A stretch of DNA of 64,000 nt, from the IMG/VR virus record IMGVR_UViG_3300038417_000475, positions 21,152 through 85,151 of that record, one strand, 5' to 3'. Source of the stretch: a virus. The translations under genes were made by a program, and so were the position numbers. Shown in pieces: positions 10,276 to 64,000 of this stretch (position 1 is its first letter; every line of letters starts with the position of its first letter). The notes under the pieces were generated by a model, which was not told where the DNA came from, did no database searches, and saw only the letters and a list, made by a program, of their open reading frames with translations.

Positions 10276-11349
10276 ATGCACAGATGGACGGATGAAGAGC
10301 GGGATATCGTCCGCCAGCGTTATGACGGAACAAGGGCATCGGCAGAGGCAATCGCCCGGGAACTGGGCGGCCTGACATTCCTCCAGGTCAGAGGGCAGGT
10401 CCAAAAACTGAAACTCGGCCATCCTTCTGAGAAGTGGAGCCCTGAGGATCTGGCGTTCCTACGTAAGAACTATGGGCTAGTTCCCGACGAGGTGATAGAG
10501 AAGAAGCTCAAGAGGACGCATAATTCCATCATCCTGACAGTCAAGCGGCGTTTGCAGATCAACCGCAAGTCGAACTTCTACACCGCCAGGGAGCTCGCCA
10601 AAATCCTCGGCATATCCTGCTCGAAGACCATTACGGAAACCTGGATGCCGCGCAAGTGGATCCGGGGAATAAAATCCCCTGTCCGCTGCGGCCCCAATAT
10701 CATGTGGAGTTTCAAGGAAGAGGAGATCACCCGCTGCCTCAGAGCGCGGCCCTACCTGGTAGAGATCTCAGATATCCAGGAAGAGCATCTCTTCCGCTCG
10801 GTTGTCCAGGAGGAATGGGATAGAGACCCCTGGTATGGTCTTGAAGAGGCGGGGTATCTCCTGGATGTCGGCGACAATGCTGTAGTCAAGTATATCAGGC
10901 GGGGAGATCTGCCGGCAACGAAGAAGACCGGCGGCCCGTGGCAGGGCGTGTGGATTGTCCGGAGAAGCGCAATAGAGGAGTTTCTGAAGAACGACCGGAG
11001 ATTCAAGGTCCATATGCAGAAGCTGGAAATGAGCCGGAAGGTCTTGAGGTTCGAAAGGGGAGAGGCCTGGATGCTCGGCAAACTCTGGCTCATCCTCTGT
11101 CCCGGCTGCCGGCGCCATGTCGAGGTCCTGGCCCCGAAGCAACTGGATTACAAAGAGATCGTGCCGAAATTTGTCGAGGCTTTCGTCAAAGGTGGCTGCC
11201 ACCATGACGAGAGGGCATCATTGATAGACTGGAAATCTGGAGAGCCCAATGGAAAGGCCAAACTTCTCACAAAGCTGATAGATGAGCACCCTACATGGTC
11301 CGCTTCTCAGATAGTCAAAGAGGCAGAGAGAATTGGAGGTCAAATATGA
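10276..11349 (+). CDS. multi-HTH DNA-binding protein
   Basis: Myb-like repeats 'RWTDEERDIVRQRY'/'KWSPEDLAFLRKNY', 'YTARELAKILG', excisionase-like HTH, CxxC. Confidence 0.65.
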   Translation: MHRWTDEERDIVRQRYDGTRASAEAIARELGGLTFLQVRGQVQKLKLGHPSEKWSPEDLAFLRKNYGLVPDEVIEKKLKRTHNSIILTVKRRLQINRKSNFYTARELAKILGISCSKTITETWMPRKWIRGIKSPVRCGPNIMWSFKEEEITRCLRARPYLVEISDIQEEHLFRSVVQEEWDRDPWYGLEEAGYLLDVGDNAVVKYIRRGDLPATKKTGGPWQGVWIVRRSAIEEFLKNDRRFKVHMQKLEMSRKVLRFERGEAWMLGKLWLILCPGCRRHVEVLAPKQLDYKEIVPKFVEAFVKGGCHHDERASLIDWKSGEPNGKAKLLTKLIDEHPTWSASQIVKEAERIGGQI

Positions 11350-25705: not shown

Positions 25706-26485
25706 TCAGAACGATTGCATCTCGGTGTACCACTCGATGAGAGTGGCTTTGTCCTGCATCTGTTCCCACCTGGAGTCGTCGATCACCTTCGCCCCGACAG
25801 GGACGGACGGGATCACGGCTCCCATTGGCGTCTGGGTCGGTGCCAGCGCCGCCGCCTGGGCCTGCATCGACTTGGCCAGCACTTCTCTGAGCGGGCACTT
25901 GTTGATATAGAAGTCGATGGTCACCTTTTCGAAGTCTACGCCATCGACAAAGGGAGCCAGCACGAAGGCCGTCTGGCTGTATATCGCGTACAACTTCCAC
26001 AGCGGGCTTCTGTCCGGGCTGTCATCAGGCCTCTTGGCACCGAGGTACCTGTAGTACTGGTTGGTGATATCCGGGAAGATGGAGTTCGAGCCCACAGTGT
26101 ACACATACTGGCTCTTGGGCACATAGAGCTGGACGAAATAGTTGCCCTTATGGAGGCCAATGGCTATCTCGTACAGGATGCCAGTCTGGGCCGGATAAGC
26201 CTGCAGGGTGCCGGAGATGCCCGGCGGGGAAGCCATATTGGGGACATTCTGGTTTGACAGGTCGAGGAGCTGGTAGTCTGACCCCGGGAGCTTCAGAGCC
26301 ACCGGGAACTTCACCAGGACCGGATCTGCCGCAACCTCGAAGGTGCGACCAGAGGCCCAGGCGAAGCCGGCCTGGTTGGGGAACAACGATGAGAATTTGA
26401 ACCAGGAGCCTTTCTTGGCGAGGACATCCTCAGGGCGTACAGAAATGTCTGCTTTGCCGAATAACTTGGCAAGTTCTATGATCAT
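25706..26485 (-). CDS. putative virion protein
   Basis: beta-rich, strongly GC3-biased codons, SD GGAGG. Confidence 0.5.
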   Translation of the reverse strand: MIIELAKLFGKADISVRPEDVLAKKGSWFKFSSLFPNQAGFAWASGRTFEVAADPVLVKFPVALKLPGSDYQLLDLSNQNVPNMASPPGISGTLQAYPAQTGILYEIAIGLHKGNYFVQLYVPKSQYVYTVGSNSIFPDITNQYYRYLGAKRPDDSPDRSPLWKLYAIYSQTAFVLAPFVDGVDFEKVTIDFYINKCPLREVLAKSMQAQAAALAPTQTPMGAVIPSVPVGAKVIDDSRWEQMQDKATLIEWYTEMQSF

Positions 26486-27180: not shown

Positions 27181-28032
27181 CTAGAGCGACTTATTCTGCG
27201 ACTGCGCGACTATGAGAGAGATCATCTCGAAGTCCGTGTCGTTGGTGGCCGTTGCCGGGCCATCAGGCATCACATCCACCAGCTGGGTCTTCAGAGGCGG
27301 GATGATGATGGGCTTCTCGAAGCGGGTGAACGAGACCTCCCTGCCGACGCCCCAGGTCTTCTTGTAGTTCCGGGAACAAGGCTGAGGAGGAGAAGCCGTG
27401 CCGCCCAGGGTGAACTGAATACCCTCGATCTTGGGGACCTGGATCTTCTCGATGGCTCCGAGATGGATCATGCCGGCATACTGCCACATGGTTTGCGACG
27501 GGATATAGCCGTTGGTTGGCTTGGTGCCACCAGTAAGACCAGTGGTCAACCAGTCAAACACACCCGCCGAAGTGCCACCATAAAGACCTAGAGAAGCTGT
27601 CTTCAGTGGGTTCAACAGCACCCCGCCGACATCCTTCGGCCTCATCGGCCAGATATCGAGCTGGGTGCCCTGGGCCAGGATGCCGCCGAATGAAGACTGG
27701 GTCTGCCACTTCACCGCTTCGATGGTCGCCAGGATGTTCAGGATCTCCTCGGCGATCATGATGGCAATGTCCTCCTGCTCCTTATTGCGGAAGATCATGT
27801 CCAGCTTGGAACAGACGGCGTTGACTTCATCAGGCGATAACCCCATCAGGGTGAGGGCGACTGCCGTTTTTCCGGAGTCGATCAGGGCGGCTGTCCAGTT
27901 AAAGGACCCGCCGTTCAGGAATGCCAGGGAGCCCAGCGGACTGTTGACTGTAGACCAGTCGAAAGGCTTGGGGCCCGGTGGCGCCTGCTGGATGAGATTG
28001 TTATTCTTGCAAAACGTGTAGATAAGTGCCAT
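27181..28032 (-). CDS. candidate major capsid/virion protein
   Basis: most optimised codon usage, strong SD AAGGAGG, helical N-half and beta-sandwich-like C-half; fold not verified. Confidence 0.45.
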   Translation of the reverse strand: MALIYTFCKNNNLIQQAPPGPKPFDWSTVNSPLGSLAFLNGGSFNWTAALIDSGKTAVALTLMGLSPDEVNAVCSKLDMIFRNKEQEDIAIMIAEEILNILATIEAVKWQTQSSFGGILAQGTQLDIWPMRPKDVGGVLLNPLKTASLGLYGGTSAGVFDWLTTGLTGGTKPTNGYIPSQTMWQYAGMIHLGAIEKIQVPKIEGIQFTLGGTASPPQPCSRNYKKTWGVGREVSFTRFEKPIIIPPLKTQLVDVMPDGPATATNDTDFEMISLIVAQSQNKSL

Positions 28033-29069: not shown

Positions 29070-31388
29070 TTACATTTGATTGTCGATATACGTTTTCAGA
29101 AGCGAATAATTTATAAGTCCCCAACCGTAATCATTGCTCTTGGCTGAGGCATAATCGCCATATATCGACATCGCAGCCTTGATATGCTCCGTGGTCAGGA
29201 CCTTCCCCTTTTTACGGGCATACTGGATCGCCAGGGCTGTCACGTATGCGGCATGGGGTGTGGCCATTGACGTGCCGGAAATCGCGGCAAGCTGCGGAGG
29301 TCCGTCTCCAAGCTGCATGGCTGCGATATATCCGTTGGAAGTCGAAAGGATATCCACACCCGGAGCCACCACGTCGGGCTTGATGAATCCGGCTTTCGTG
29401 GGGCCTCGAGAGGAGAAGCTGGCTATGTTTCCGTGGATATCCACAGCTCCGACAGTCAACGCATCCGGTGAACAGCCGGGGCCTCCTACAGTCATCTGGC
29501 CAGGGCCGCTGTTGCCGGCAGCGATACAACAGATGATCCCAAGTTGCGTCATGGCGGTGATGGCCTGGCATTCCGGGTCATTCAGGTAATCATCGGGTTC
29601 GTCCCCTCCCAAAGACATCGAGATGATATCGGCTTTCCAGTGCAGAGCGTTCATCAGGCCGGCCAGTATCCAGCTTGCCATCCCTACGCCGATCCCGCCG
29701 CCCAGGACTTTGAACGGACGAACCTCTGCTCCCGGAGCTCCGCCCTTGAGCAACGCTCCTCGCGCAGGCCCGGCGAGAACCTTAAAAGGCCTCCCGCCGA
29801 TGCAGGTGTTACACCAGGTATTGTGGATAAAAGCCATACCTTGTTTACCAGCAAGGTAATAAGGGCTTTCTGGGTCAAGGGTGAAATCATAGAGGAACCC
29901 CTTGAAGTCTATCTCCTCAACAGATTTGGGCAATAGGTAAGGGGCTGTTCTGTGAACTTCAGTGTAGAGAGGCCTTTTCAGCTTCAGGTAGGGAATCAAC
30001 GCCTCGGTCATCCGGGTAAATCCTGCATCTACAGCAGATACTTGGTAACAAACCTTCTTCCCTTTACCAGAAGGTTTCTGTTTTGTAAACCGTCCTCCAA
30101 AACCTAGAACACCGAACAGGCTAACGATTTGCTGTGCCAGTTGCCTTGAAGTAGTGCTAACCCTGCATCTAGCACGATCAGGGTCGAAATGACCATCACC
30201 ATCTATGATCCCGGCCAGCACTGCCAGGAGTACATTCGTGGGTTGTTTTAAGAGCCTCTCCGGTATGGTATTCTCTTTCCGTCTTAGACCTAGCGCAATG
30301 AACTCTCTTTTCAATCCTGATACCTCAATGCTTCTACTCTTCTTGCGTTTTTTGGGAGTCCAAGCACAATAATGATAGCCGAGCTGCTTCAGATATGTCT
30401 CAATAGCAGGCCCTTCGTCATGGTGTAGAGAAAGGTTCACGGCACTGTGATGGAAACAGCCCTCAGCTATGAACAGCCCTGCCAAGTAGGCCAGATCTGT
30501 ATTCACAGTCTGTACGAAAGGCAGATTGATGATCTGCTCATTCGTAGCCAGACCGTAATTTCTATGGGACTGAATCAGGTCAGAAGCTCTCACATCCCTG
30601 TATCTTTTGCACCGTGGCTCATAGATTTTGAATGGATGCCACGGAGTTGTCACAAATTCAGATGTCCCGGCTTTCACTTTTATCAATTTGCCGTCGAAAG
30701 GAATCTTGTGTACAGCCAAGACCCTTACAGGTTTTCTGAAGCCGATCGTCCATGTGGGATCTACGGGTATTTTGGTAAATCCCAGTTCACTCTGGACCTC
30801 TGGAACCTTCAAATTCTCATAGAGGTCTTGGAATCGCACAAGGCCACAGAACGTAGTATAGACAAAGGCTTCTCCCTCAATGCAACCATGGCCGACCTCA
30901 TCGAACATAAAAGGCTGGCCGGGTACCGATGATTTACCATGTCCGAAGTATCCCTGGACCGCGAAATCCAAGGCTGTACCGGTATCGAGCACTGCAACTT
31001 TTACACCTTTGCCGGTGATACCGTCCGCGGCAGCTACGTCCGCTCCCACCATCTGCCCGCTCACCGATGTCGGGATCCTCTCGTGCGAGGAGTCGGAGGC
31101 GGCATAAGCCATGGCTTTCGCCGGCCCCGTGATGGGGTTGGAGAGGAAGAGGTTGATGAACTTGGAAAACTTCTGATCTACCGGCATGGTGATGCGGATG
31201 GCCCGTATCTGCTCCGGTTTCACGTTGAGCACATAAGGCACAGCTTCTATCGCCGCTACCTGGTTAGGCTGGATATCCACCTTCACAAAATTGAAATCGA
31301 GAGGAGCAGGGAATATACCCATCTTGGTCAGAGAAATGTTGACCTCGGCAAGATGAATAGGGTCTACCTGGACAAGGTATTTAGCCAT
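29070..31388 (-). CDS. subtilisin-like S8 serine protease with intein
   Basis: VAVLDTG (Asp), GHG|T (His), AAGNSG, SGTSMATPH (Ser), N-terminal prodomain. Confidence 0.95.
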   Translation of the reverse strand: MAKYLVQVDPIHLAEVNISLTKMGIFPAPLDFNFVKVDIQPNQVAAIEAVPYVLNVKPEQIRAIRITMPVDQKFSKFINLFLSNPITGPAKAMAYAASDSSHERIPTSVSGQMVGADVAAADGITGKGVKVAVLDTGTALDFAVQGYFGHGKSSVPGQPFMFDEVGHGCIEGEAFVYTTFCGLVRFQDLYENLKVPEVQSELGFTKIPVDPTWTIGFRKPVRVLAVHKIPFDGKLIKVKAGTSEFVTTPWHPFKIYEPRCKRYRDVRASDLIQSHRNYGLATNEQIINLPFVQTVNTDLAYLAGLFIAEGCFHHSAVNLSLHHDEGPAIETYLKQLGYHYCAWTPKKRKKSRSIEVSGLKREFIALGLRRKENTIPERLLKQPTNVLLAVLAGIIDGDGHFDPDRARCRVSTTSRQLAQQIVSLFGVLGFGGRFTKQKPSGKGKKVCYQVSAVDAGFTRMTEALIPYLKLKRPLYTEVHRTAPYLLPKSVEEIDFKGFLYDFTLDPESPYYLAGKQGMAFIHNTWCNTCIGGRPFKVLAGPARGALLKGGAPGAEVRPFKVLGGGIGVGMASWILAGLMNALHWKADIISMSLGGDEPDDYLNDPECQAITAMTQLGIICCIAAGNSGPGQMTVGGPGCSPDALTVGAVDIHGNIASFSSRGPTKAGFIKPDVVAPGVDILSTSNGYIAAMQLGDGPPQLAAISGTSMATPHAAYVTALAIQYARKKGKVLTTEHIKAAMSIYGDYASAKSNDYGWGLINYSLLKTYIDNQM
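29820..30884 (-). mobile_element. intein with LAGLIDADG homing endonuclease (355 aa)
   Basis: starts C after HG, block B 'TTPWHPF', 'LAGLFIAEG'/'LAGIIDGDG', ends 'FIHN' followed by Thr. Confidence 0.92.
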
Positions 31389-33237: not shown

Positions 33238-33699
33238 CTACTTCCTTCTGATCGTCTGCAATACCGCTATGGAACTCAAAGGGCTTTTCTTGTCCCACCC
33301 CATAAAGGTCTTGAATTCCTCAGGGGTGAACGAATCGTTGATCTTCCCCAGGTAGGTATCGCCAACCCTCTGGCCAATAATGGGGCCGACCACAGGCACG
33401 AATTCAAGCAGGTCAGCCAGGTCCCGGCCTATGGAGGCTTTGAGCGCGGCGCTGTGCCCCGGGGTCATCGAAGGGGCTTTGAGCTGGGGCAGACGCAGTT
33501 CGGGCAGAGTTACACTCCCGAATGGCGTCCCCATCTCGGCCTCCGGAAGATACGGCGCTTTGTCCATAACAGCGTTGATCGCCTTGATAGGCGGAGAGCT
33601 GTCAAGTTTCCGGGAGACCTTCAGCGCCGCCCTCCCTAAGGTGCTCTCAAACGGGAGTTTGCTCGGTATCGGAGGGGGTGGTATCCGTATCGCACCCAT
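33238..33699 (-). CDS. hypothetical protein
   Basis: SD GGGGG, 'LLEFVPVVGPII'. Confidence 0.6.
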   Translation of the reverse strand: MGAIRIPPPPIPSKLPFESTLGRAALKVSRKLDSSPPIKAINAVMDKAPYLPEAEMGTPFGSVTLPELRLPQLKAPSMTPGHSAALKASIGRDLADLLEFVPVVGPIIGQRVGDTYLGKINDSFTPEEFKTFMGWDKKSPLSSIAVLQTIRRK

Positions 33700-33708: not shown

Positions 33709-33855
33709 TTATTTGGGTATTACGTCCGAGATCCGGGGCAGGAATTTGGGAAGCACAGACTCAACAGACTGGAAAATCTTGGGAACGCCGGGGATAGCAG
33801 GGAGCTTCGTCATCATTCGGACCAGACCCGTGGGCATAGCAACTTGAGCAGACAT
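33709..33855 (-). CDS. small Pro-rich peptide related to 28086/31847 N-termini
   Basis: 'IPGVPKIFQSVES.LP..LPRIS'; SD GGAGGTG. Confidence 0.5.
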   Translation of the reverse strand: MSAQVAMPTGLVRMMTKLPAIPGVPKIFQSVESVLPKFLPRISDVIPK

Positions 33856-33955: not shown

Positions 33956-34255
33956 TTATTTTTGGTCTTTGCTGACTTCCCGCAGGAGTTCGATAATCTC
34001 AGGAGGAAGGTTCTCCGACAATTTCTTGGCGTCCGCCAGCATTTGACTGACCGCCCTTATTTTCTCTATCGGCATCGAGCTGATCAGCCTCACCAGCTCC
34101 AGGCCGTTGTCTAAAGACTTGGGGTCTCCGGAGGTCAGGGCCTTGGCTTTGTCCAGAATCTCGCCGATCTGTTTGAGCTTCCTCTGGTCTATCGCTGCCA
34201 GGTCATGGACCAGCTGCTGCGCCTTGCCAACTCCATCAAAAATCTTCGGCATCAT
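33956..34255 (-). CDS. helical hypothetical protein
   Basis: SD GGAGG. Confidence 0.6.
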   Translation of the reverse strand: MMPKIFDGVGKAQQLVHDLAAIDQRKLKQIGEILDKAKALTSGDPKSLDNGLELVRLISSMPIEKIRAVSQMLADAKKLSENLPPEIIELLREVSKDQK

Positions 34256-34265: not shown

Positions 34266-35210
34266 CTACTCTATGACGCTCTGCGCTACGGAGCCCGTAA
34301 TGAATTTATGGTCGATCTCCGGGCAGGCCATCAGGTCACTCGGGAAATCATTGCCTTCCAGGTAGGGCAGGAACGGCTCTGCCAGCCTGTGGAATACAGC
34401 TTCGATCGCCGACTTCTTAAAATCCTCAGGGTGGACCTGGATATCGACATACATGGCCTCTCCCATCCAGTTGCAGACCTCCTGGATGGTGGGAGGCTTG
34501 GGGTTTGTCAGCCAGTATTTGCCGGCGAGCTGCTGTTTGACGATGTAATCCGCCACCGCGTCGACAGGGACCAGGTTGATATGCCCGTCCGGATTGCCTT
34601 TGACCCTGAACTGCGGTGTCAGAACAGGCAAACGCAACGTACCTTCGATGGCCCGCCTCACAATCTCAGCCCTTTCATGGACTGCGCAGATTCCCCGGGC
34701 AAACTGGTAGAGGGCGCCCATCGAAGGCTTGATGATATTCATGCAGGGGATGATCACCCCCGGCTTGAAGACAGCCTTGAAGAGCCAGGTCTGGGCATCG
34801 ACCGCCTTCTCCGCCGCTTTCTTGGAGATCTCGTAGGAATTGCGCCCTATGGTGTACGCCGTCCCAACGTAGAAAAGTTGCGATACGTTATAGCGTTTGC
34901 AGAAGTCGATTACATGAATAGTGCCATCGTAATTCGTCTTCCAGACCCGGTCTTCGTGCTTCGTTCCCAGGTTGATATCCGCCGCCAGGTGGTAAAGAGC
35001 GTCAAATCTGCGGACGTTAGCCTCGTCCTCTCTGACTCCCAGCAGATTCTCCACAATATCGCCATGGATGATATCCATATCCGGAAAGAGCTTCTTCGTT
35101 TTATCCACGTCGCGGGCTATGAGAGTCACGAGATCACCGCGCTCGATGAGTCGCGGTACCACTTCCTGCCCGAGCTGCCCCGATGCGCCTGTCACCAGAA
35201 TCTTCATCAT
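34266..35210 (-). CDS. extended SDR oxidoreductase (fatty acyl-CoA reductase/male-sterility-like)
   Basis: TGASGQLG, YHLAA, TNYDGT, YEISK. Confidence 0.85.
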   Translation of the reverse strand: MMKILVTGASGQLGQEVVPRLIERGDLVTLIARDVDKTKKLFPDMDIIHGDIVENLLGVREDEANVRRFDALYHLAADINLGTKHEDRVWKTNYDGTIHVIDFCKRYNVSQLFYVGTAYTIGRNSYEISKKAAEKAVDAQTWLFKAVFKPGVIIPCMNIIKPSMGALYQFARGICAVHERAEIVRRAIEGTLRLPVLTPQFRVKGNPDGHINLVPVDAVADYIVKQQLAGKYWLTNPKPPTIQEVCNWMGEAMYVDIQVHPEDFKKSAIEAVFHRLAEPFLPYLEGNDFPSDLMACPEIDHKFITGSVAQSVIE

Positions 35211-35228
35211 TACCTCCACAGTTCCTTA

Positions 35229-35670
35229 TTAAACCGCCAAGGCAAATTGCCGCCGTTGCTTTTGGCAGGCACGGCAAAATCTATAACCATGCCAGGCATA
35301 CGTATTTTCTTCATCAAAAGGATGCCCATGCTTACAAGCTGTTTTCTTGGCATTCAAGGCAGTCGGGCTAAGACCACGAAGAAGATTTATCTTAAGCGGA
35401 ACAGGCTCCAAATGCCCTGGATTCACGCATAAGGTATTTATGCAGCCTCTAGCCTTCACATGATCTAGCGTATAACTTTCAGGTATGGGCCCCACCATGA
35501 GTTCATAGGAAAAACGGTGTGCCAACACATGCTTGCCATTAACTTTAAACATCCCATACCTAAGCCCACCCCTACCACTACTAGTACCTGCCTGCCAGAG
35601 CCAGCAGGCATCAGGATCAGTATGAGGCCCGACTTTCTCCCAAAACCGCTCTTCAACTGTTTTTTTTCAT
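35229..35670 (-). pseudogene. HNH endonuclease, frameshifted in A8 run after ATG
   Basis: in-frame 'EERFWEKVGPHTDPDACWLW..AHRFSY..LDH..CVNPGHLE' near-identical to 44630-45130; ATG 35670 is one A out of frame. Confidence 0.75.
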
Positions 35671-35933
35671 CGTCGGTTATCACAGCCCTTATGGCTATAG
35701 TGGGCATCCTTCCCCTTTTTGCCCACCCTCATCAGTGTGCCACCTCCTCGCCCACAGTGCACGCAGACAATCGGCCCTCCGGGAGCTGGAGGCGGTAAGC
35801 CCGGGACAGCATCCAGGATAGGGATGTCCGAGACCAACTTCCCGGGCACCTTTGGGTATTGATCCATCAATTCCCGCAAGTGAACCAGAGACTGGGTGGC
35901 ACTCCCCACCAGCACAACTCGTTTCTCGTCCAT
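35667..35933 (-). CDS. Zn-finger hypothetical protein
   Basis: CVHCG..HKGC; ATG 35933 follows PKS stop. Confidence 0.5.
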   Translation of the reverse strand: MDEKRVVLVGSATQSLVHLRELMDQYPKVPGKLVSDIPILDAVPGLPPPAPGGPIVCVHCGRGGGTLMRVGKKGKDAHYSHKGCDNRR

Positions 35934-35934
35934 A

Positions 35935-37083
35935 TCAAGCCCAGTAGAGCAAAATTCCATACGTTTTGAAGCCGGCGCCCATTGTGAGCACCAGGCCCCA
36001 GTCGCCCGGCTGGGCCTGCTCTTTCGCCAGGCGCCCGATTGAAGCAATGGTAGCAGAACTCTGGTTACCCTGCTGCCTCAGGATTTGCCTCGAGTAAGCC
36101 AGCTTCTCCTCCGGGATCTTCAGGCGATCGCGGATATTGTCCAGGACTTTGACCCCGCCCGGGTGAATAATAAGGTGTTTGATGTCGCGCAGCGTCATCC
36201 CCGGGACCTGTTCCAGGATTCTGTTTACCACCCTCTCGACCAGCACAGGTGCCACCTTCGGCACATCCTTGTCCAGCTTCACCTTCAGCCGGCCGTCCAC
36301 CCAGTCAAAGCCAAGATAGTCAATATAGCGGCGGTCGAACTCTTCGGCAAAAGCCCAGATCCAGGGGTGCTTCGGGTTGTCATCCTGCCCGATCAAACAG
36401 GCACAGGCCCCGTCGCTGAAAATGGCATTGGCCACCGTATTCTCCAGGTCTTTCTCCGGAGCCGGGTAGAACGTGGCGGTGCAGATCTCCGCCGTTATTA
36501 CCAGCGCGGGGTAGCCCGTCTGCATGAAATGGTCATGGGCCCTGCGGATAGCCGGAGCTCCGCCAACGCACCCGCCTCCGATCATATCGGTATGCTCAAT
36601 ATCAGAGGGCAGCTTCAGCAGCATCGAATAAAAGTAACTCAGAGAGGGGCAGAGCAGCCGGGGTTGCGTTGTGGTAGCAAAGGTGATTGAGCCGATGTCC
36701 TTACGGATCTCTAAACCTTCGATGCACTGTAAGGCGGCTTCCAGCCCCAGGTTTACAGCACCCGCCTCATATTCCTGGCACATCTGCTCAAAGGTCATAT
36801 TACGCAGCTTGCTGGGATGAATCCAGCACGGCCGCCGGTCGATCCCGGAATTCTTGAAGATATTCCAGACCCGTTGAGACGTGTAGCCCAGGGCATCATA
36901 TGCTTCCTTCTGGGTCACAAATGTCTTGGGGACTGCGGTACCCAGTGAGATGATCTTGGCCCTCTTCGGCTTCCGATAATAGGCCGCCGAGCGTTGGGGG
37001 GCTGCCTCTTCCTGCCGTTTAATAGTTTCAGGAGTCCGGGTATCCGGAAAGCCGTTCAGGTCTGGTCTGGTTGCAATCATCAT
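35935..37083 (-). CDS. type III polyketide synthase (chalcone synthase-like)
   Basis: catalytic triad GGGCVGG / IIHPGG / GNQSSAT, 'AEICT', 'AIFSDGA', 'MGAGF'. Confidence 0.92.
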   Translation of the reverse strand: MMIATRPDLNGFPDTRTPETIKRQEEAAPQRSAAYYRKPKRAKIISLGTAVPKTFVTQKEAYDALGYTSQRVWNIFKNSGIDRRPCWIHPSKLRNMTFEQMCQEYEAGAVNLGLEAALQCIEGLEIRKDIGSITFATTTQPRLLCPSLSYFYSMLLKLPSDIEHTDMIGGGCVGGAPAIRRAHDHFMQTGYPALVITAEICTATFYPAPEKDLENTVANAIFSDGACACLIGQDDNPKHPWIWAFAEEFDRRYIDYLGFDWVDGRLKVKLDKDVPKVAPVLVERVVNRILEQVPGMTLRDIKHLIIHPGGVKVLDNIRDRLKIPEEKLAYSRQILRQQGNQSSATIASIGRLAKEQAQPGDWGLVLTMGAGFKTYGILLYWA

Positions 37084-37298
37084 ACCCCCGGAGCTTTCGG
37101 CATCGGCTGGTCAAATGCGTGGGCATAATCTTCCAAAGCCACATAGTAATCCACTACACCCTTCCTGAATTCTGGGGTTTCTATAAGAAGCTCCATCAGT
37201 TTTCTGAAACCATCACGGCCTAATCCCCTGATTTCTTCCGGGCTCAGTATATAATCTGGATCCTTCTGGTACTTTTCAAAAATCTCTTCCGGCTTCAT
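37080..37298 (-). CDS. hypothetical protein
   Basis: SD AAGGAGG. Confidence 0.55.
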   Translation of the reverse strand: MKPEEIFEKYQKDPDYILSPEEIRGLGRDGFRKLMELLIETPEFRKGVVDYYVALEDYAHAFDQPMPKAPGV

Positions 37299-37309
37299 TT
37301 AGGCCTCCT

Positions 37310-38272
37310 TCATTTCGCCACCGCCTGGCTGATGACCAGTGCCAGCATCCACAGGAACATCACCCCCATTGCCGCCATAATCGCCTTGTTGTTGAATTTC
37401 AGCTCAGCCTGCTTGACGTCCGGCTTTGTTTCGCAGACCGCCAGGATGCAGTAGATAAACGGCGGCATGAGGGCCAGAGTAGAGAGCGTCAGCGGCGCTA
37501 GGTACCCGCCGATGACAAGGGCTATCTGGATGATGTACGCAAAGCCCAGCAGTGTACACGTAAAGAGCACCGGGTTGACTCCCGTCTTCCAGGCCAGGGC
37601 GCCCATGTTGCGGAGTCCGGAACTCCAGTTGACATCCGCATCGAACGCCTGGTCGATGAATTCCGCGCCAAACCCAAACGTCCAACCGAAAACTAGCCCT
37701 GCCATAAAAGCCGGGCCGAAATTGTGGAACACAAATGTGCTGGAGGCCGCAGCTCCAAGACAACATGCCAATGGCCCAAAGCCCAAACCCAACACAGTCT
37801 CGCAGGCATAATGTAATTTACCGAGGGAATAAAACGGAGAACAGAGAGCTGATAGCCCCCATGGCAGCCAAATCCAAGCTGAGGCATAGTGAGCAATGAT
37901 CGCAGCCACTACCGCAGACGCAGCCAACCAGCAGAGGGCATTGACAAGAACTTCAGTTGGCTTCATCAAGCCAGTCACAATGACCTGGTTGCCGCTGGTG
38001 TAGGACTTCGGCTTCGAGGTATCATCGCCGATATGGTCAATCCCTGTAGTATAGTCAAAGAATGTATTGAGTGAGTGTTCCCCAGCCATCAATAGACCAG
38101 AGCAGACGATTGCTAACGCAATCAGCCAGCCCGCAGCGCCGGTGAGAATGCAACCGAGGGCCACGGCACATCCGGCTGCTGGCAATGCAAAGGGTCTACT
38201 TAATATGACTATGTGGATTCTTGCTCTTTGTAGTAACGAAAGTCCTGATTTTGGCAGTAACTTTTGGCTCAT
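37310..38272 (-). CDS. UbiA/MenA-family prenyltransferase
   Basis: 'LSRPFAL', 'NTFFDYTTGID', 'DQAFDADVN', multiple TMs. Confidence 0.88.
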   Translation of the reverse strand: MSQKLLPKSGLSLLQRARIHIVILSRPFALPAAGCAVALGCILTGAAGWLIALAIVCSGLLMAGEHSLNTFFDYTTGIDHIGDDTSKPKSYTSGNQVIVTGLMKPTEVLVNALCWLAASAVVAAIIAHYASAWIWLPWGLSALCSPFYSLGKLHYACETVLGLGFGPLACCLGAAASSTFVFHNFGPAFMAGLVFGWTFGFGAEFIDQAFDADVNWSSGLRNMGALAWKTGVNPVLFTCTLLGFAYIIQIALVIGGYLAPLTLSTLALMPPFIYCILAVCETKPDVKQAELKFNNKAIMAAMGVMFLWMLALVISQAVAK

Positions 38273-38993
38273 CCTTCAGTTCCTCCTCCCAAATAACGAG
38301 GCATTTGATTCCAAGAGCATTATAAGCCATGATTCTACCGAGCTCTGTTCGTCTCCACTTTGGATTGTTCCCTTCGTGCCAATAGCGTCCGAAGGCTTCA
38401 ATCACCATTTTGCGGCCATTTTTATTGAAGAAATCAGGGATCATCCCATCAATAATAACCTTGCCATCACCAGTGTATTCCCATTCGCCTGGATAGTCCC
38501 TCTCCAGCAGTACCTCCAGGTTCTTCTCCAGCTTCGTTGGCTTAATCAATGCCCTATTTGATTCAGCCCTTAATTGTCGATATGCCCTAGAACTTGTCCA
38601 GCACTTCGAGGAACAATATTCACCTGTCCCCTTAGTAGTCATAGCTGACCTTGGAACTCTGAAATCCCTCCCACAATTCAGGCAAATGCGGGCTACCCTC
38701 CTATTTCTATGATCTGAGCATTTCCGGGAGCAGAATTTCCGGGTACGCCGCAACCCCGGTTCCTTCACTGGGAGGGTTTTGCCACATTTAGCACAAGAGA
38801 TGATTCTGGGTTCTTTCTTAACCCAATTCTTGCTGAAATTCTTCACAATGGTCTGATAATCTTGAGGAAGAGAGCCAAACCAAACTAGGCGGCAGGGATT
38901 CGAACAAAAGTTGTGCTCACGTACTAGCCAGGAAGCTTTCTGAAATTGCTTGCCACACGTAGTGCAGGTTACCTCACGCATTACAGTTGTCAT
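38196..38993 (-). CDS. Zn-finger + PD-(D/E)xK (Vsr/DUF559-like) endonuclease
   Basis: three CxxC..F/YCS..C repeats; 'IPDF..VIEAFGRYWH'. Confidence 0.8.
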   Translation of the reverse strand: MTTVMREVTCTTCGKQFQKASWLVREHNFCSNPCRLVWFGSLPQDYQTIVKNFSKNWVKKEPRIISCAKCGKTLPVKEPGLRRTRKFCSRKCSDHRNRRVARICLNCGRDFRVPRSAMTTKGTGEYCSSKCWTSSRAYRQLRAESNRALIKPTKLEKNLEVLLERDYPGEWEYTGDGKVIIDGMIPDFFNKNGRKMVIEAFGRYWHEGNNPKWRRTELGRIMAYNALGIKCLVIWEEELKDEPKVTAKIRTFVTTKSKNPHSHIK

Positions 38994-39640
38994 ATTAGCT
39001 TACATAGTGCCATTACCAAAGCACTCGCAAGGGGTATGGAGAAATTATCATCGATATATCTTGTAGTTTTCGTGAATCTTTCTGCAAGCACAGCAGTAAT
39101 GGCCCCGACAGCGCCAATCCAGTAGGGTTGGATGAAGTATGCGAGCAAGAGACAGGTTACCACCATACCCACGCTGCCCCACAATCCTTTGACTTCTCTC
39201 CCATAGACACGGCTACGGATGAGCCCCGTTATCGCATCCCCTCCCCCCATGAACGTCAGAGGAACTATTGCCAACCAGGGTTCGTGGTATATCCCCCAGA
39301 GAACGCCGATGAGAACAGCTCCGGTGGCTGGGAAATGTATTTCGGCTAGAGCATCTAATCTCCCGGAGCCACCCACACCACGGAAAAGACCAGGGCGGAA
39401 AACCCTGGCATAAAGTAACAGGATTGTGAATCCGGCTGTCAGAATAAATGGCCACCAGAAATTATGGAACAGGAAAGGCATCAGAAGAAATCCAAGACAA
39501 CCCCCCAGGTGACCTATTTTCCTGCTGATATACTGCGGCACTTTATAGTCATAGAAGAGATTGGCCAGATACAAGGACGTGAGAACTCCGAGGAGTATCA
39601 GGGCAACGTATGGCAATTCGTGTACGTAGCTCATTCTCAT
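38990..39640 (-). CDS. CTP-dependent polyprenol (phytol/dolichol) kinase-like membrane protein
   Basis: 'SRKIGH', 'GGGDAITGLI..KGLWGS', 'IDDNFSIP'. Confidence 0.85.
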   Translation of the reverse strand: MRMSYVHELPYVALILLGVLTSLYLANLFYDYKVPQYISRKIGHLGGCLGFLLMPFLFHNFWWPFILTAGFTILLLYARVFRPGLFRGVGGSGRLDALAEIHFPATGAVLIGVLWGIYHEPWLAIVPLTFMGGGDAITGLIRSRVYGREVKGLWGSVGMVVTCLLLAYFIQPYWIGAVGAITAVLAERFTKTTRYIDDNFSIPLASALVMALCKLI

Positions 39641-40035
39641 CTCCCTAAATGCAGCATCTTTTTGATTTCCTTGAGCCAGTCTTCTATAGCCTGCATCAGC
39701 TCTTCGGTATCGTAGAGTTCCTCCGTACCGCTGACCATGATAAGCCGGTGCGCCTTTGCCGCCCTCGGGGTTATCACACCGTCAACAAGGTCGAAGAACG
39801 TATCTTCGTGCATCAGGATCTTGTTCCGCACTTCACACGGTTCTTCGAGAAGGTGCAGCTTTCCCTCGTAGTATTTGAGGTAGAAAAGGCCTCCTTCTTC
39901 CCCCAGTACTTTGAGTTCAGCGGCCCGCCCCTCCGCGGACTTCAGCTTTTCTTTGATCTCTGCCGGCAGCCGCTGCATCAGGGAAGCCTGCCGTTTTTCC
40001 GCTCGCGCGAGTAGATCTGCAACAAGGCCAGCCAT
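39637..40035 (-). CDS. SCP2 lipid-carrier-like protein
   Basis: 'ILMHEDTFFDLVDG.ITP.AA...LIMVSG'. Confidence 0.7.
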   Translation of the reverse strand: MAGLVADLLARAEKRQASLMQRLPAEIKEKLKSAEGRAAELKVLGEEGGLFYLKYYEGKLHLLEEPCEVRNKILMHEDTFFDLVDGVITPRAAKAHRLIMVSGTEELYDTEELMQAIEDWLKEIKKMLHLGR

Positions 40036-40045
40036 ATACCCTCCT

Positions 40046-41041
40046 TTAAGTGAGTTTGGCTATAACTCTCCCGCCCATTTTAGTTATTCCCCTCTTGACC
40101 CTCTGCCCCCTTGATTCTCTCCGGAGTGTAACCGGCTTGGCTGTCAAAATATCCTGCGCCAGTTTTGTAAAATACGGTTTCAATGCGTTCATGTCCGGGG
40201 TCTGGGGAATGGACATCAGAAACGGGATCCCGCAATCCCTGGCCTCTTTTCCCATAGCTAGCTTGGGGGAAAGCAGCTGGTGGCTCACCCTCCCGCAGCT
40301 CGGGCACAAATAGCCGTCCATCATCGAGAGAAGACCGATTATGGGCACTTCCTCGAGCCTCAAAAAGTCGACGGTTCTCCTCATGCCGAGTGCCGAGATT
40401 TCTGACGGTTGGGAGACTATAATCACACCTAGCAGTCCACTTAGGTGCTCAAAAAACGAGAAAACTTCGGATGCAGTTGATGGCGGCATATCCGCCAGAA
40501 GAATCTCCGTGTCATCGGGCCACTGCACCTGTTCCGATAAGAGTTGACGGATGATTGAAGCCCTGTTGGAAACATACGTTTGTTTCAGGTACCAGGCCTG
40601 ATGGTTATACACATCGGCTTCCTGAACGATCTCGAAGGAAGAATGTACGTCGGGATTCTTCTCGAGAAACTCTTTGCATTTCTGTACGATGTCCTGATTG
40701 GCCTTCAGCCAGTTCTGCACCTTCTCCATCACTTCATCGGGGATCTCAACGGTGCCCGTCTCACCCTTCCACATGACGGAATTAGCTTCGCCAAAATGAG
40801 CACAAATCGAGAACAGATAATATCCGTTGATTTCCGGAGGAATGAGCTTGCGTTGTTCCGTTGATGTTTTGATGCGTGGGGGTTCCGAGAGCCCCAACGC
40901 CTTGTGAAGTGTACTGCCGCTCAGGTCGATATCCAGAAATCCGACCCTGTGCCCCATATCGCGTAATGCCAGCCCCAGAAGTGCCGTAACGGTGCTTTTC
41001 CCGACCCCGCCCTTCTGGCTCCAGACCGCGATTTTTTTCAC
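40046..41041 (-). CDS. Mrp/NBP35 (ApbC-like) ATPase
   Basis: SQKGGVGKS, LDIDLSG, DMPP, 'GYLCPSCG'; leaderless GTG 41041. Confidence 0.85.
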   Translation of the reverse strand: MKKIAVWSQKGGVGKSTVTALLGLALRDMGHRVGFLDIDLSGSTLHKALGLSEPPRIKTSTEQRKLIPPEINGYYLFSICAHFGEANSVMWKGETGTVEIPDEVMEKVQNWLKANQDIVQKCKEFLEKNPDVHSSFEIVQEADVYNHQAWYLKQTYVSNRASIIRQLLSEQVQWPDDTEILLADMPPSTASEVFSFFEHLSGLLGVIIVSQPSEISALGMRRTVDFLRLEEVPIIGLLSMMDGYLCPSCGRVSHQLLSPKLAMGKEARDCGIPFLMSIPQTPDMNALKPYFTKLAQDILTAKPVTLRRESRGQRVKRGITKMGGRVIAKLT

Positions 41042-41048: not shown

Positions 41049-41137
41049 ATTATATGCGCACGTTTCTTACGTTGTAAATGCCCCAAACGCGCACTGCCTC
41101 GCGCTCTATTTACAACGCAATGCGCACGTTTTATAAT
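41049..41137. promoter_or_regulatory. divergent pair of leaderless promoters
   Basis: TTTACA-acg..-TATAAT on both strands (41049-41078 minus; 41109-41137 plus), each 7 nt from a start codon; TGCGCACGTTT in both. Confidence 0.8.
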
Positions 41138-41144
41138 CCGATTT

Positions 41145-41390
41145 ATGACAATAGAAAACACTACTGAAACCCAGCCTGAAACCCCGGCAGCAGATGTCCC
41201 ATCGGAAGTCTATCGTTTGACTGTGGAAATGCCCGAAAAGTACCGTAAAATTCTGAAGACTGCGGCGCAGCAGGCATTTCTCCTGAAGAAGATAGATGAG
41301 CCCTCGGTACACAACGTAATGAACCTCTTCATTAACCTGGGGCTTCAGTATCTGGTGGACGAAGGCCGCAGAGCACAAGGCTACAGATGA
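41145..41390 (+). CDS. small putative DNA-binding (RHH-like) protein
   Basis: 'YRLTVEMPEKYRKILK'. Confidence 0.55.
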   Translation: MTIENTTETQPETPAADVPSEVYRLTVEMPEKYRKILKTAAQQAFLLKKIDEPSVHNVMNLFINLGLQYLVDEGRRAQGYR

Positions 41391-41650
41391 CCCACGAGCG
41401 TCTGGAAACGCTGCGTTACATTGGGCAATGGCGGGTAGTCACCGCAGATGGCGTCGCCTCCGCCCTGGGCATATCATATAACACAGCAGTCAGACGGCTG
41501 GAACGTATGAGGGATATGGGGCTGGTCAGATCGGACACCAACTTCGTCATGCAAAAGGAATTCGGCCCGGTGCATTTGGACTGGAGCCTCACCAGAAACG
41601 GAAGAAAGAGGCTCGAATATTTTGAACAACATCTTCGGGAGGTGGCATAA
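41387..41650 (+). CDS. winged-HTH protein
   Basis: 'TADGVASALGISYNTAVRRLERMRDMGLV..LTRNG'. Confidence 0.8.
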   Translation: MTHERLETLRYIGQWRVVTADGVASALGISYNTAVRRLERMRDMGLVRSDTNFVMQKEFGPVHLDWSLTRNGRKRLEYFEQHLREVA

Positions 41651-54050: not shown

Positions 54051-54944
54051 ATGAATGACTATCTCCAGAAGCTCTACGACCACTATGAGAGCCGGCTGGC
54101 CTCCAAGGGCTACAATCGAACCCAATACCTGAAATGGGTGCAAGCCTTCCTGGAGTACTGCGAGGGCAGTGACTTCAAAACCGAAGCTAATTTCCAGGAT
54201 GAGGATGCGGTCCGCGCGAAGATTCAGGCCTATTTCATCAAGCTCAAGAGGGGCTACGGTGATGGCTCCCTGGGAACGATCTGGTCCATCCTGCGGGCCT
54301 TCTTCAACCGCAATCACCTCGAATGGCCTTTCGGCAAAGGGGAAGCCCCCTCACAGGCTGAAGACAAGAAACAGCACCCTGCCCTCGACCCTGGCCTGGT
54401 GAATGAGATCATCCTGGCAGTCAGACAAAAGGGCAGCCCGGAAGAGCAGGCTTTTCTGGCCTTGAGCTCTACCTATGGACTCCGCCGCGGAGAGCTTCTG
54501 GCCCTCACTCCTGAGGAATTCAAAATCAAGGACCGTACTATATATGTAGCGACCCTGAAACATGGGCGCGCCCGCAGCCATCTCATTCCTGAAGAGATAG
54601 TGCCCTATCTGGAGGGATATGACTTCAGCCGGAAGATCTCCCGGAGCAGCCTGGCTATCCTGTGGTACAAGATCGAAGACAAGGCGGGGCTGGTCCATTA
54701 TCCGAGGGTGGGCTTCCACAGCATCCGGCGCACGCTGAATACTTGTCTGGAGCAGCATTTCGGTGAGGTTCAAATAAAGACCTTCCTGCGGCATAAGGGC
54801 GGCAGTGACATGACCATGGCGTACACAGCCACCAAGTTCATTACCCGGGAAGGCTCTACCAACAAGCTGGCTGCCGTCTTGAGCGACCTGGACAAGCGGG
54901 TATTTGAAGTCCATCCGTTCCTGCCGGCATGGAGGGAGACATGA
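54051..54944 (+). CDS. tyrosine recombinase/integrase
   Basis: R (YGLRRGE), K, HSIRR, LRH, Y catalytic set. Confidence 0.92.
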   Translation: MNDYLQKLYDHYESRLASKGYNRTQYLKWVQAFLEYCEGSDFKTEANFQDEDAVRAKIQAYFIKLKRGYGDGSLGTIWSILRAFFNRNHLEWPFGKGEAPSQAEDKKQHPALDPGLVNEIILAVRQKGSPEEQAFLALSSTYGLRRGELLALTPEEFKIKDRTIYVATLKHGRARSHLIPEEIVPYLEGYDFSRKISRSSLAILWYKIEDKAGLVHYPRVGFHSIRRTLNTCLEQHFGEVQIKTFLRHKGGSDMTMAYTATKFITREGSTNKLAAVLSDLDKRVFEVHPFLPAWRET

Positions 54945-61330: not shown

Positions 61331-62077
61331 ATGAATGACACCAATATCGAATATGCAGAGAAGACGCTCAATCCCCTAACGGGTTGTCTCCGGCGCTGTC
61401 CATACTGCTACGGCTGGAAGCTGGCGAATGGCCGGCTGAAAAAGCTGTACCTGGCGAACAAAAGGGTCATCGCCGGGGATCCGGGCGACCCGTATGCCAT
61501 CCGCTGGTGGCCCGAAAGACTGGAGGAGATCAAGCATCTCAAGAAACCCACCAGGATCTTTCTCTGCAATATGTCGGACCTGTTCGGGCACGGTGTGCCT
61601 CCGGCGCACATTTTGACTATCCTGGATGTTGTAAGGGCTGCAAAACAACATACTTTCATCCTCTTGACTAAATGTGGCTATAACCTGGTGGAGTATTCCC
61701 CATTTCCGCCGAACTCCTGGGTCGGTATGACAGCCACCAACCGGAAGGAGTATTCCAATGCCATTCACTACTTGAATTTTGTCCAAGCCGGGGTTAAATT
61801 CATCAGCTTCGAGCCCCTCTTGGAGGAAGTCGGAGTTCTTTCAGGTGACTTCCTGTCTCACAACATCCGGTGGGCAGTCATAGGCGCCCAGACCAACCCC
61901 ACAGTCCGTCCGAGCAACAAAGCCATGCAGGAGATCCTGGTGGCAGCCAAGAGAGCGGGGGCCGCTGTCTTCTGTAAGGACAACCTAGCCCGGAAAGCCA
62001 GCGAAAGGGCAGCATTACCCATGTTATGCAGAGAGAGGCGGTGCAGTTTGATTCTAAGGCAGGAGTATCCGCTGTGA
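61331..62077 (+). CDS. DUF5131 (phage Gp37/Gp68) radical-SAM-like protein
   Basis: 'TNIEY..NPLTGCLRRCPYCY', 'MSDLF', 'LTK', 'FISFEPLL'. Confidence 0.88.
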   Translation: MNDTNIEYAEKTLNPLTGCLRRCPYCYGWKLANGRLKKLYLANKRVIAGDPGDPYAIRWWPERLEEIKHLKKPTRIFLCNMSDLFGHGVPPAHILTILDVVRAAKQHTFILLTKCGYNLVEYSPFPPNSWVGMTATNRKEYSNAIHYLNFVQAGVKFISFEPLLEEVGVLSGDFLSHNIRWAVIGAQTNPTVRPSNKAMQEILVAAKRAGAAVFCKDNLARKASERAALPMLCRERRCSLILRQEYPL

Positions 62078-63430: not shown

Positions 63431-64000
63431 ATGAGGGTCACATTCGGGTATTCCCAAGAAGGACCCGCCTCACACCTATAGATGAATGGGCATTTATTGG
63501 TGAGCCTCCCTTGTTTCGTCCTCCATTTGATCAAGCTGTTGACATCTCCGTGAGTGCAGTATTTACTTGGGATATTGAAGTGGCGAAATGGTTGAAGGAT
63601 GCGTGGGGCCAGTACTACCCCAAGGTCCGTATCGGGGGCCCCGCGATATCGGGGCCTGATGGTGACTTCACCCCTGGCCTTTATGTCAAGCGGGGTATCA
63701 ACTTCACCAGCCGGGGCTGCAATAACCGCTGCCCCTGGTGCCTTGTCCCGAAGATGGAGGGGAAGATCAGGCTCCTCAAAATTCAGCCGGGCAATGTCAT
63801 CCAGGATAACAATTTCCTTCAGACCGGGAGGGACCACATGGCCCGGGTGTTTGAGATGCTCAGGCATGAGCGGTACCCTGCCAGGTTTGCCGGCGGGCTG
63901 GATCCCGAGTTGGTCGATGATTGGGTCGCCGAGGAGCTGCGGTCGCTGCGGATAGACGAGGTATTTCTCTCCGCGGATTCCTACGCCGGGCTTCAAGGGC
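63427..64000 (+). CDS. radical SAM protein, truncated by window end (not in ORF track)
   Basis: translated by hand: 'IRVFPRRT..VFTWD..IGGPA..FTSRGCNNRCPWC..DNNFL'. Confidence 0.85.
   Translation, partial: MNEGHIRVFPRRTRLTPIDEWAFIGEPPLFRPPFDQAVDISVSAVFTWDIEVAKWLKDAWGQYYPKVRIGGPAISGPDGDFTPGLYVKRGINFTSRGCNNRCPWCLVPKMEGKIRLLKIQPGNVIQDNNFLQTGRDHMARVFEMLRHERYPARFAGGLDPELVDDWVAEELRSLRIDEVFLSADSYAGLQG

Follow-up and report, generated by a model that had tools for sequence, protein, structure and literature searches.

We have analyzed a 64,000-nucleotide (nt) stretch of viral DNA (hereafter the window), which comprises bases 21152-85151 of an 85,151-bp virus genome from peat (G000, IMG/VR record IMGVR_UViG_3300038417_000475). 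The minus strand of the window carries a co-oriented run of open reading frames (ORFs) between 41161 and 33956, and six genes within 41041-34266 encode, in the direction of the run, an Mrp/NBP35-family P-loop ATPase, a carrier protein with an SCP2 fold, a kinase-like membrane protein, a prenyltransferase of the UbiA superfamily, a type III polyketide synthase (PKS) and a short-chain dehydrogenase/reductase (SDR). An earlier reading made without database searches (the sequence-only reading) had described this region as a virus-borne operon for the synthesis of a prenylated polyketide or lipid. Its coordinates and gene identities hold when examined with Pfam, family profiles and structure models, and all genes lie on the minus strand; its gene list was incomplete, since it omitted a 265-amino-acid (aa) Zn-finger gene, an HNH gene and a 72-aa ORF. 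Judging from related contigs, the six-gene cassette is a conserved core feature of this virus lineage that has been kept despite divergence. We propose that it is a vertically inherited core operon of an uncultivated lineage of bacterial viruses, and that its enzymes form a membrane-associated pathway in which host precursors become a prenylated lipid of polyketide origin, either phenolic or quinone-like, a reading to which we give about an even chance of being correct.

The type III PKS (35935..37083, minus strand) matches both domains of its family, PF00195 with 62.9 bits and PF02797 with 56.2 bits (cut-off 27 each), with a conserved core that starts at about residue 45. Its Cys-His-Asn triad had been called intact, and this is borne out by alignment A1, in which C172, H307 and N340 are invariant in 19 sequences; the GGGC, IHPGG and GNQSSA contexts align with Pks11. 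This enzyme from M. tuberculosis also is the best match in the PDB (2.5e-42), with plant enzymes being nearly equal, and the best NCBIfam model, NF042429, reaches 153.3 bits as compared to a cut-off of 425, such that the protein is not a DpgA equivalog. Because Pks11 and the plant enzymes score alike and DpgA falls far below its cut-off, the class of product is not readable from the sequence.

The prenyltransferase (37310..38272, minus strand) is identified as a membrane protein of the UbiA superfamily, closest to MenA, by matches of its family profile and by its Asp-rich motifs. The two motifs that define such enzymes (NxxxDxxxD-like and DxxxD-like) are described in a section of PMC4044012, and the corresponding residues, N69/D73/D79 and D207/D211/N215, are invariant in 18 sequences. 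Thirteen of these 18 family members match PF01040 (best 1e-13). The best NCBIfam models for the family are those of MenA (NF004749 is matched by 5/18, best 7.9e-15), the generic prenyltransferase model PRK12884 is matched by 3/18, and the name given by JGI to the relatives is 1,4-dihydroxy-2-naphthoate octaprenyltransferase. The window protein itself reaches only NF009523 (E 7.7e-4) and matches no MenA model; hence, it is not a MenA member, and MenA is its nearest subfamily. The top PDB match of the family profile is AfUbiA (4tq3), which is weak (E 0.083).

The last of the six genes (34266..35219, minus strand) encodes an extended SDR of the thioester-reductase or fatty-acyl-reductase type (PF07993, E 4.2e-17, 62.6 bits with a cut-off of 20.1). 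It displays the motifs TGxxGxxG, S119/T120 and Y129-x3-K133, and residues T10, G11, G14, S119/T120, Y129 and K133 are conserved across 19 sequences. The best PDB match of its profile is the reductase domain of MxaA (4u7w, 1.2e-20), and GalE-type epimerases come next at 1e-17. The 132-aa protein encoded second in the run (39637..40035, minus strand) matches no Pfam or NCBIfam family at E<=0.01, and its identification stems from an AlphaFold model that was built from 10 homologues (pLDDT 79). A Foldseek search with this model returned 33 PDB chains at E<=1e-3 with SCP2 folds, the best being UbiJ-SCP2 (6h6p, E 4e-6, TM 0.60/0.67), followed by sterol carrier proteins. As modeled, the protein thus adopts the alpha/beta SCP2 fold of lipid-binding proteins and is nearest to UbiJ of ubiquinone synthesis.

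The 216-aa kinase-like protein (38990..39640, minus strand) has nine predicted helices and a confident AF2 model (pLDDT 91), and we place it as a remote member of the superfamily that comprises CdsA, dolichol kinase and phytol kinase (CTP_transf_1). It gave no match among the PDB sequences, and PF01148 finds no match in the virus genome at E<=10. An exhaustive HMMER search nonetheless returned 853 representatives of the family at E<=1e-3, a separate search that scored 8000 candidates placed 642 proteins at E<=0.01, and 3 of 46 distant full-length representatives match PF01148 (best 2.5e-6). When this widened alignment (A6) was compared by hhalign to 20 CdsA sequences from the class Dehalococcoidia, the two were found to be related with 81% probability (E 1.2e-5, 130 columns), and the conserved GD..TG..R / K..GS block of A6 falls on the matching CdsA block; a control comparison of A6 to the UbiA alignment gave 0.1%. 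In a wide structural search with VIA-align against 48,161 chains, CdsA (4q2e) ranks fifth (Z 7.5, 163 residues) and CarS (5guf) ranks 13th (Z 6.6). The three nearest ESM Atlas clusters (scores 0.95-0.96) are named phosphatidate cytidylyltransferase, dolichol kinase and phytol kinase, and other relatives carry the source names dolichol kinase or CdsA, one UniRef relative being named phosphatidate cytidylyltransferase. By these sequence and model comparisons, the protein likely belongs to the CTP_transf_1 superfamily, within which a kinase and a cytidylyltransferase are both possible. Thus, from the earlier description as a CTP-dependent polyprenol kinase-like protein, a remote superfamily link can be kept (A6 and the three PF01148 matches), while the pointers to a kinase consist of neighbor and source names.

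The run opens with the Mrp-like ATPase (40046..41041, minus strand; PF10609, E 2.8e-40, 138.7 bits with a cut-off of 27.1). Its longest ORF extends to 41161; a GTG at 41041 lies 7 nt after a TATAAT, and since the promoter ends just ahead of this GTG and Pfam homology begins right after it, the real protein probably has 331 aa and its transcript would be of the leaderless type, as had been claimed before. The promoter is sigma-70-like (TTTACA-N18-TATAAT, 41049..41078, minus strand) and stands back to back with a mirror-image promoter on the plus strand (41109-41137), which likewise ends 7 nt before a start codon, the ATG at 41145. The pattern TTTACA-N17/18-TATAAT occurs twice in the whole window, back to back at 41049-41137, where none is expected (100 shuffles), and both divergent promoters (41049-41145) contain the 11-mer AACGTGCGCAT. 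The sequence-only reading had further proposed that the operon has its promoter motif in common with the virion block, which we could not confirm, because the pattern is confined to this divergent pair; the gap before the downstream genes holds only a weak TTGACA site. Among 168 loci examined, 167 have no match to the pattern, and the sole match is in an unrelated locus (L002). On the other side of the divergent promoter, positions 41145-41390 of the plus strand encode an 81-aa protein that matches nothing in Pfam, and the following gene, 41387-41650, has weak helix-turn-helix matches.

Within the run, five junctions are tight. A 10-nt gap separates the Mrp-like gene from the SCP2 gene, overlaps of 4 nt join SCP2 to the kinase-like gene, the kinase-like gene to the Zn-finger gene and the 72-aa ORF to the PKS gene, and HNH and SDR genes are 9 nt apart. 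The run had been described as mostly coupled, which is accurate for these five short gaps and overlaps (4-10 nt) and not for the 382-nt gap that separates the PKS gene from the HNH gene.

One argument for a functional unit is that the same genes recur together in related genomes. For the PKS, 15 relatives were found at 58-66% identity, and some lie on contigs with a length of 31-93 kb. When its alignment was used for scanning, 131 loci were obtained, in each of which the six family profiles were then searched. Fifteen of the 131 carry the full collinear set of Mrp, kinase-like, UbiA, PKS and SDR genes, 14 of these 15 with the SCP2 gene as well; 18 further loci, mostly on short contigs, have partial sets, and 98 have no partner, of which 33 are flanked by 5 kb or more on either side. 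L007 and L008 are identical to L006, and L084 is the same apart from a slightly offset Mrp ORF; these four therefore represent one virus, and the 15 full sets count as 12 distinct ones. An independent entry through the kinase-like gene gave the same picture, in that a scan of IMG/VR with its alignment found three contigs (41-65 kb), all three of which hold all six genes; the synteny search in viral databases that had been suggested as a check thus supports the cassette. Identities of the relatives to the window proteins range from 30 to 70%, and, by their source names, the contigs originate from peat, sediment and the subsurface.

The arrangement is not entirely rigid. PKS precedes UbiA in L024, L025 and L169-L171, where the set is still complete. 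In trees of the kinase-like and UbiA families (alignments A3 and A4), UbiA splits into two deep clades of 8 and 11 rows (support 100/100), and the two gene trees are not congruent. This lack of congruence, together with the two gene orders (UbiA-PKS and PKS-UbiA), argues that modules have been shuffled between related viruses. With respect to rarity, IMG/VR gave no match when scanned with the PKS protein and one distant locus (L002, 24% identity) with the PKS alignment; a scan of this kind works with two peptide patterns and missed the three IMG/VR relatives that were found later through the kinase-like gene, such that it is no measure of rarity. L002 is a 439-kb IMG/VR contig with a distant type III PKS at 9842-11029 and without a cassette partner.

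The phylogeny of the PKS suggests where the cassette enzyme came from. Our tree has 108 rows, that is, 107 of the 131 loci plus the window, from which PKS matches of fewer than 300 profile positions as well as L007 and L008 were omitted. The cassette PKSs form a single clade of 28 rows (27 with partners, plus L029) with an SH-aLRT support of 99 and a stem of 0.77, and this clade is sister to six rows from Acidobacteriota (joint support 97), in one of which (L086) the PKS is followed by an O-methyltransferase. The simplest reading of the tree is one old acquisition of the PKS followed by long vertical descent.

The sequence-only reading had considered such a cluster very unusual in a virus. This agrees with the absence of tblastn matches to both PKS and UbiA in 50,697 catalogued phage records, among which the kinase-like protein had one weak match. 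We also found no paper on a virus-encoded cassette of type III PKS and UbiA in the literature searched, which covered few subscription journals. Bacterial clusters of PKS and UbiA are already known, whereas the combination in the cassette, and its position within a viral core genome, were not met in the literature and phage records searched.

Cellular counterparts of the kinase-like gene give a lead to the host. A match to it was found in 4 of 401 genomes of the class Dehalococcoidia, of which one is on a contig of viral type and one is an isolated pair of genes. The latter resides on contig 28 of genome G153 (45.6 kb; loci L137 and L138), which is chromosomal in character, with FtsZ, FtsA, MraW, MraZ, TrmD, a two-component pair and PriA. 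The two proteins share 58-60% identity with certain viral proteins, which exceeds the viral medians of 53% and 39%, and both genes nest in starred clades with viral sequences, from which it follows that genes have moved between the viruses and this bacterial class, in one direction or the other. The pair supports a host among the Dehalococcoidia, while other relatives were binned as Patescibacteria. Four further cellular homologues (L139-L142) have no Pfam match and no UbiA gene within their short flanks.

How might these proteins work together? We infer substrates, product, order of steps and biological role from family membership throughout. The type III PKS would load a host acyl-CoA, extend it with malonyl-CoA and cyclize the chain to a hydroxylated ring, and the thioester-reductase-like SDR might act on what the PKS takes up or releases, by reduction of a carbonyl or thioester. 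The MenA-like UbiA would then attach a host-derived polyprenyl chain in the membrane. The polyprenol-kinase-like protein could supply this prenylation by re-phosphorylating free prenol, and the UbiJ-like SCP2 protein could ferry hydrophobic intermediates from soluble to membrane-bound enzymes and back. A lipid with a prenylated aromatic or quinone-like structure fits with a UbiA that is nearest to MenA, an SCP2 protein that is nearest to UbiJ, and a sister PKS that lies beside an O-methyltransferase. As for its role, the lipid may serve in particle assembly or in remodeling of the host membrane, which is suggested by the fact that the operon runs co-oriented into a gene block common to the relatives. 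More specifically, it is possible that the lineage makes a dedicated prenylated polyketide lipid that is built into a particle membrane or needed for assembly, and that it has had the pathway in its core genome since its origin, but we hold this narrower version only tentatively and regard it as more probably wrong than right.

Several observations weigh against the proposed pathway. The window UbiA and kinase-like proteins match no Pfam model, with UbiA giving no match to PF01040 even at E<=1, and PF01148 is matched by none of 17 close homologues of the kinase-like protein. A Foldseek search with the model of the latter returned nothing significant (4q2e ranks 33rd, E 1.4), its VIA-align Z of 7.5 to CdsA lies within the noise range for helical bundles, and the narrow profile A3 relates to CdsA with a probability of only 4% (hhalign). 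Hence, unlike Pfam, PDB, Foldseek and the narrow profile, only the widened alignment gave a CdsA signal. There also is a chemical difficulty, in that a polyprenol kinase yields a monophosphate, whereas aromatic UbiA enzymes use diphosphates, and no second kinase of the VTE6/DUF92 type was seen in the virus. Furthermore, the virus genome has no match to polyprenyl synthase (PF00348), acyl-CoA ligase (PF00501), FAD monooxygenase (PF01494) or methyltransferase (PF08241), and precursors, ring tailoring and a mature quinone therefore would need host enzymes. PKS and SDR are not always adjacent among the relatives. On contig 28 of G153, the kinase-like/UbiA pair stands alone between trmD and a response regulator (L137, 14612-16215). 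Finally, PHROGs and Pfam searches with the 10 largest proteins returned neither a capsid nor a portal or terminase family.

The Mrp-like ATPase presents a problem of its own. Its sequence combines a deviant Walker A (KGGVGKS) with the motif CPSC and with an insertion of some 65 residues, and its matches in the PDB are 2ph1, Cfd1 (6g2g) and 3vx3, the CPSC being aligned with CPNC of 2ph1. Walker A (KGGxGK[ST]) is invariant in 14 family members, while the CxxC is kept in only four of them (the window, L004, L016 and L017), which likewise counts against the cassette as we read it. This pattern argues that the conserved role of the protein is probably not Fe-S delivery. We thus reject Mrp as a supplier of Fe-S clusters, the CxxC having been lost in 10 of 14 relatives, and the sole candidate clients being a DUF5131 protein at 61331-62077 and, at 63706-63801, a weak N-terminus of the radical-SAM type. 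Adjacency alone puts the ATPase in the pathway, and its place there is doubtful. The insert follows residue 133 and varies in length within the family.

A different view of the same genes is that two independent modules travel together, with the kinase-like/UbiA pair leading to a lipid linked to polyprenyl phosphate, and PKS and SDR to a non-prenylated alkylpyrone, alkylresorcinol or reduced polyketide lipid. The chromosomal pair in G153 speaks for this, because it indicates that the pair can work without PKS or SDR, such that the cassette may be two modules; in the 40 kb of this 45.6-kb contig that were examined, the four remaining cassette genes are all missing, as is any further gene of the virus, and both genes nest inside the starred viral clades. 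The varying order of PKS and UbiA, inserts that part PKS from SDR in several loci, and the incongruent kinase-like and UbiA trees point in the same direction. However, the six genes occur together in every contig of the lineage that is long enough (the 15 full sets and all three IMG/VR contigs), despite the divergence of 30-70% identity and reshuffling by endonucleases, and the affinities of UbiA to MenA, an aromatic prenyltransferase, and of the SCP2 protein to UbiJ likewise count against it. We therefore consider it possible, though clearly short of probable. If, on the other hand, all six genes do serve one product, this might be a polyketide-derived substitute for a respiratory quinone that keeps or redirects host electron transport, in other words an auxiliary metabolic function rather than a particle lipid. 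The MenA-like prenyltransferase and the UbiJ-like carrier would suit such a product, as would the origin of the contigs from peat, sediment and subsurface, and type III PKS clusters are described, in part of PMC9927152, as making polyketide quinones that are alternate electron carriers in actinobacteria. Yet the virus lacks a match to a hydroxylase or methyltransferase for quinone maturation (PF01494, PF08241), and the cassette is universal in the lineage, goes back to one old acquisition and heads a block common to the relatives. Auxiliary metabolic genes usually are sporadic, and we regard this explanation as unlikely.

Two further explanations strike us as highly improbable. One is an archaeal-type ether-lipid or CDP-activation route, in which UbiA would resemble DGGGP synthase in using a glycerol-phosphate acceptor, and the 216-aa protein would be a cytidylyltransferase like CarS or CdsA. 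The structural alignments of the latter with CdsA and CarS, the naming of one Atlas neighbor and one UniRef relative as phosphatidate cytidylyltransferase, and the PRK12884 matches of three UbiA members would accommodate it, but the MenA models are far ahead of other UbiA subfamilies (7.9e-15 versus 7.7e-4), no enzyme resembling GGGP synthase or forming a head group was seen in the virus, and PKS and SDR would be left without a role. The other is that the region is not viral at all, being host chromosome beside a provirus, a plasmid or an assembly chimera, and the fact that none of the 10 largest proteins matched a capsid, portal or terminase family, the binning of relatives into Dehalococcoidales and Patescibacteria metagenome-assembled genomes and the presence of a tyrosine integrase could be taken in this sense. 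Both ends of the 85,151-bp record carry an exact 127-bp repeat, though, and IMG/VR classes it under direct terminal repeats with a CheckV completeness of 100%. The cassette is collinear, with the same genes on both of its flanks, in many independent contigs, three of them from IMG/VR, so that it is neither chimeric nor host DNA. The region is dotted with homing-endonuclease genes and contains an intein, and the few kinase-like matches in Dehalococcoidia (4/401, including one viral-type contig and one isolated pair) also speak against a chromosomal origin. GC content across the run is 0.49-0.55 in 2-kb steps, the same as in the remainder of the genome. Accordingly, host chromosome and assembly chimera, which the sequence-only reading had named as what would undo it, were rejected.

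The proposed pathway resembles known systems in parts, and none in full. The agq cluster of Actinoplanes missouriensis reportedly makes alkyl-O-dihydrogeranyl-methoxyhydroquinones (Awakawa et al. 2011) and is said to contain a monooxygenase and a methyltransferase as well, and to be without a kinase-like, SCP2, reductase-type SDR or Mrp-like gene. There, a phenolic polyketide from a type III PKS is then prenylated by a membrane-bound enzyme of the UbiA type, and the virus cassette has PKS and UbiA too. The agq cluster is bacterial and chromosomal, and we liken the two by description, not by Agq protein sequence. The cassette is not a full set of this type, since a search of the complete virus genome at E<=1 detected neither PF01494 nor PF08241. 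A section of PMC4044012 cites agq as a case of the bacterial clusters in which a type III PKS is combined with a membrane prenyltransferase of the UbiA type.

The assembly of menaquinone and ubiquinone offers a second parallel, with MenA providing the best NCBIfam models for the UbiA family, UbiJ-SCP2 being the best structural match of the carrier, and a soluble carrier serving a membrane prenylation. It differs in that the window UbiA falls far under the MenA equivalog cut-offs, that the head group in the virus would come from a PKS and not from chorismate, and that no ring-modifying Ubi or Men enzymes were found. In phytol salvage to tocopherol and phylloquinone, phytol kinase (VTE5) and phytyl-phosphate kinase (VTE6) act ahead of a prenyltransferase, VTE2 or of the MenA type. 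The virus likewise encodes a membrane protein that may belong to the prenol-kinase family beside a prenyltransferase of the UbiA family, but the link to the kinase family is remote, a second kinase of the VTE6/DUF92 type was not seen, and the carrier of the genes is a virus, not a plastid or cyanobacterium.

Coccolithovirus EhV carries a multi-gene sphingolipid pathway whose product serves infection and particles, and in this sense a lipid pathway of several genes on a virus has a precedent. EhV is a giant virus, however, whose host is a eukaryotic alga and whose enzymes are unrelated to those of the cassette, and for the peat virus such a role of the product is a proposal. Type III PKS operons for alkylresorcinols, lastly, combine the PKS with tailoring genes in one operon and give amphiphilic phenolic lipids, and the Acidobacteriota sister PKS fits in here with the O-methyltransferase next to it. 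The viral PKS has other partners, namely prenyltransferase, kinase-like protein, SCP2 and reductase-type SDR, with no methyltransferase or FAD oxidoreductase. Examples given in portions of PMC10896814 are the cyanobacterial hid cluster and a methyltransferase-oxidoreductase-PKS operon of Planctomycetota, and an O-methyltransferase beside the PKS is presented there as the usual context of phenolic-lipid synthases.

Three ORFs within the run appear to lie outside of the pathway or are restricted in their distribution. The 265-aa Zn-finger protein (38196..38993, minus strand) has a Vsr/PD-(D/E)xK-like C-terminus, a weak PDB match to the mobile intron protein 3r3p (E 0.038) and matches in 17 mycobacteriophage records; its homologues sit at different positions in L009, L015, L025 and L027. 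It probably is a free-standing homing endonuclease with no part in the pathway. The HNH endonuclease-like gene (35229..35552, minus strand; PF13392, E 5.4e-5, 23.2 bits, under the cut-off of 24.8) has no homologue in related loci by tblastn and, on this comparison, is a variable insert that is likewise outside the pathway. Since homologues of the 265-aa gene are found elsewhere in other loci, we consider both genes to be mobile inserts. The 72-aa ORF (37080..37298, minus strand) is present only in the window and in the 93%-identical locus L003.

A 99-aa ORF (33956..34255, minus strand) starts 10 nt after the SDR gene, has an AGGAGG ribosome-binding site and begins the downstream block that is common to relatives; a weak homologue of it follows the SDR gene in L010. 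Several relatives have downstream homologues of the window genes 33238-33699, 29070-31388, 27181-28032 and 25706-26485. The second of these (minus strand) encodes a 772-aa subtilase (PF00082) that is interrupted by an intein-like LAGLIDADG/Hom_end segment and is kept downstream of the cassette in relatives. A 256-nt gap between the 99-aa gene and a 153-aa gene contains a 47-codon ORF (33712-33855, minus strand) with a GGGAGG ribosome-binding site, preceded by a weak TTGACA-N17-TTAGTT site, and a search of the ESM Atlas with the 153-aa protein was uninformative.

Elsewhere in the genome, a tyrosine recombinase (PF00589, E 2.1e-8) is encoded at 54051-54944 on the plus strand, and the virus may thus be able to integrate. 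The DUF5131 protein mentioned above (PF07505, plus strand) has a weak radical-SAM-like N-terminus, and a homologue of it lies directly after the SDR gene in L004 (12428-13135); the second weak radical-SAM N-terminus belongs to an ORF that is cut by the window end. A 493-aa protein encoded before the window (genome 9764-11245) contains a segment of about 90 residues that recurs between cassette genes of relatives (L016, L019, L020, L024, L025, L035, L169 and L171) and probably is another mobile element of the endonuclease or intein type.

The existence of a virus lineage with a six-gene lipid cassette that is common in peat, sediment and subsurface metagenomes has implications beyond the single genome described here. 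The cassette enzymes constitute a compact and portable pathway of the meroterpenoid type, and the exchange of the kinase-like/UbiA pair with a chromosome of the class Dehalococcoidia provides a lead to the host. The general view is that phages obtain lipids from their hosts. If the product were a particle lipid, this would be the first prokaryotic virus known to synthesize a structural lipid rather than to take host lipids. Whether particle lipid or electron carrier, such a product would provide a chemical marker for these viruses and widen the range of what bacterial viruses are known to make.

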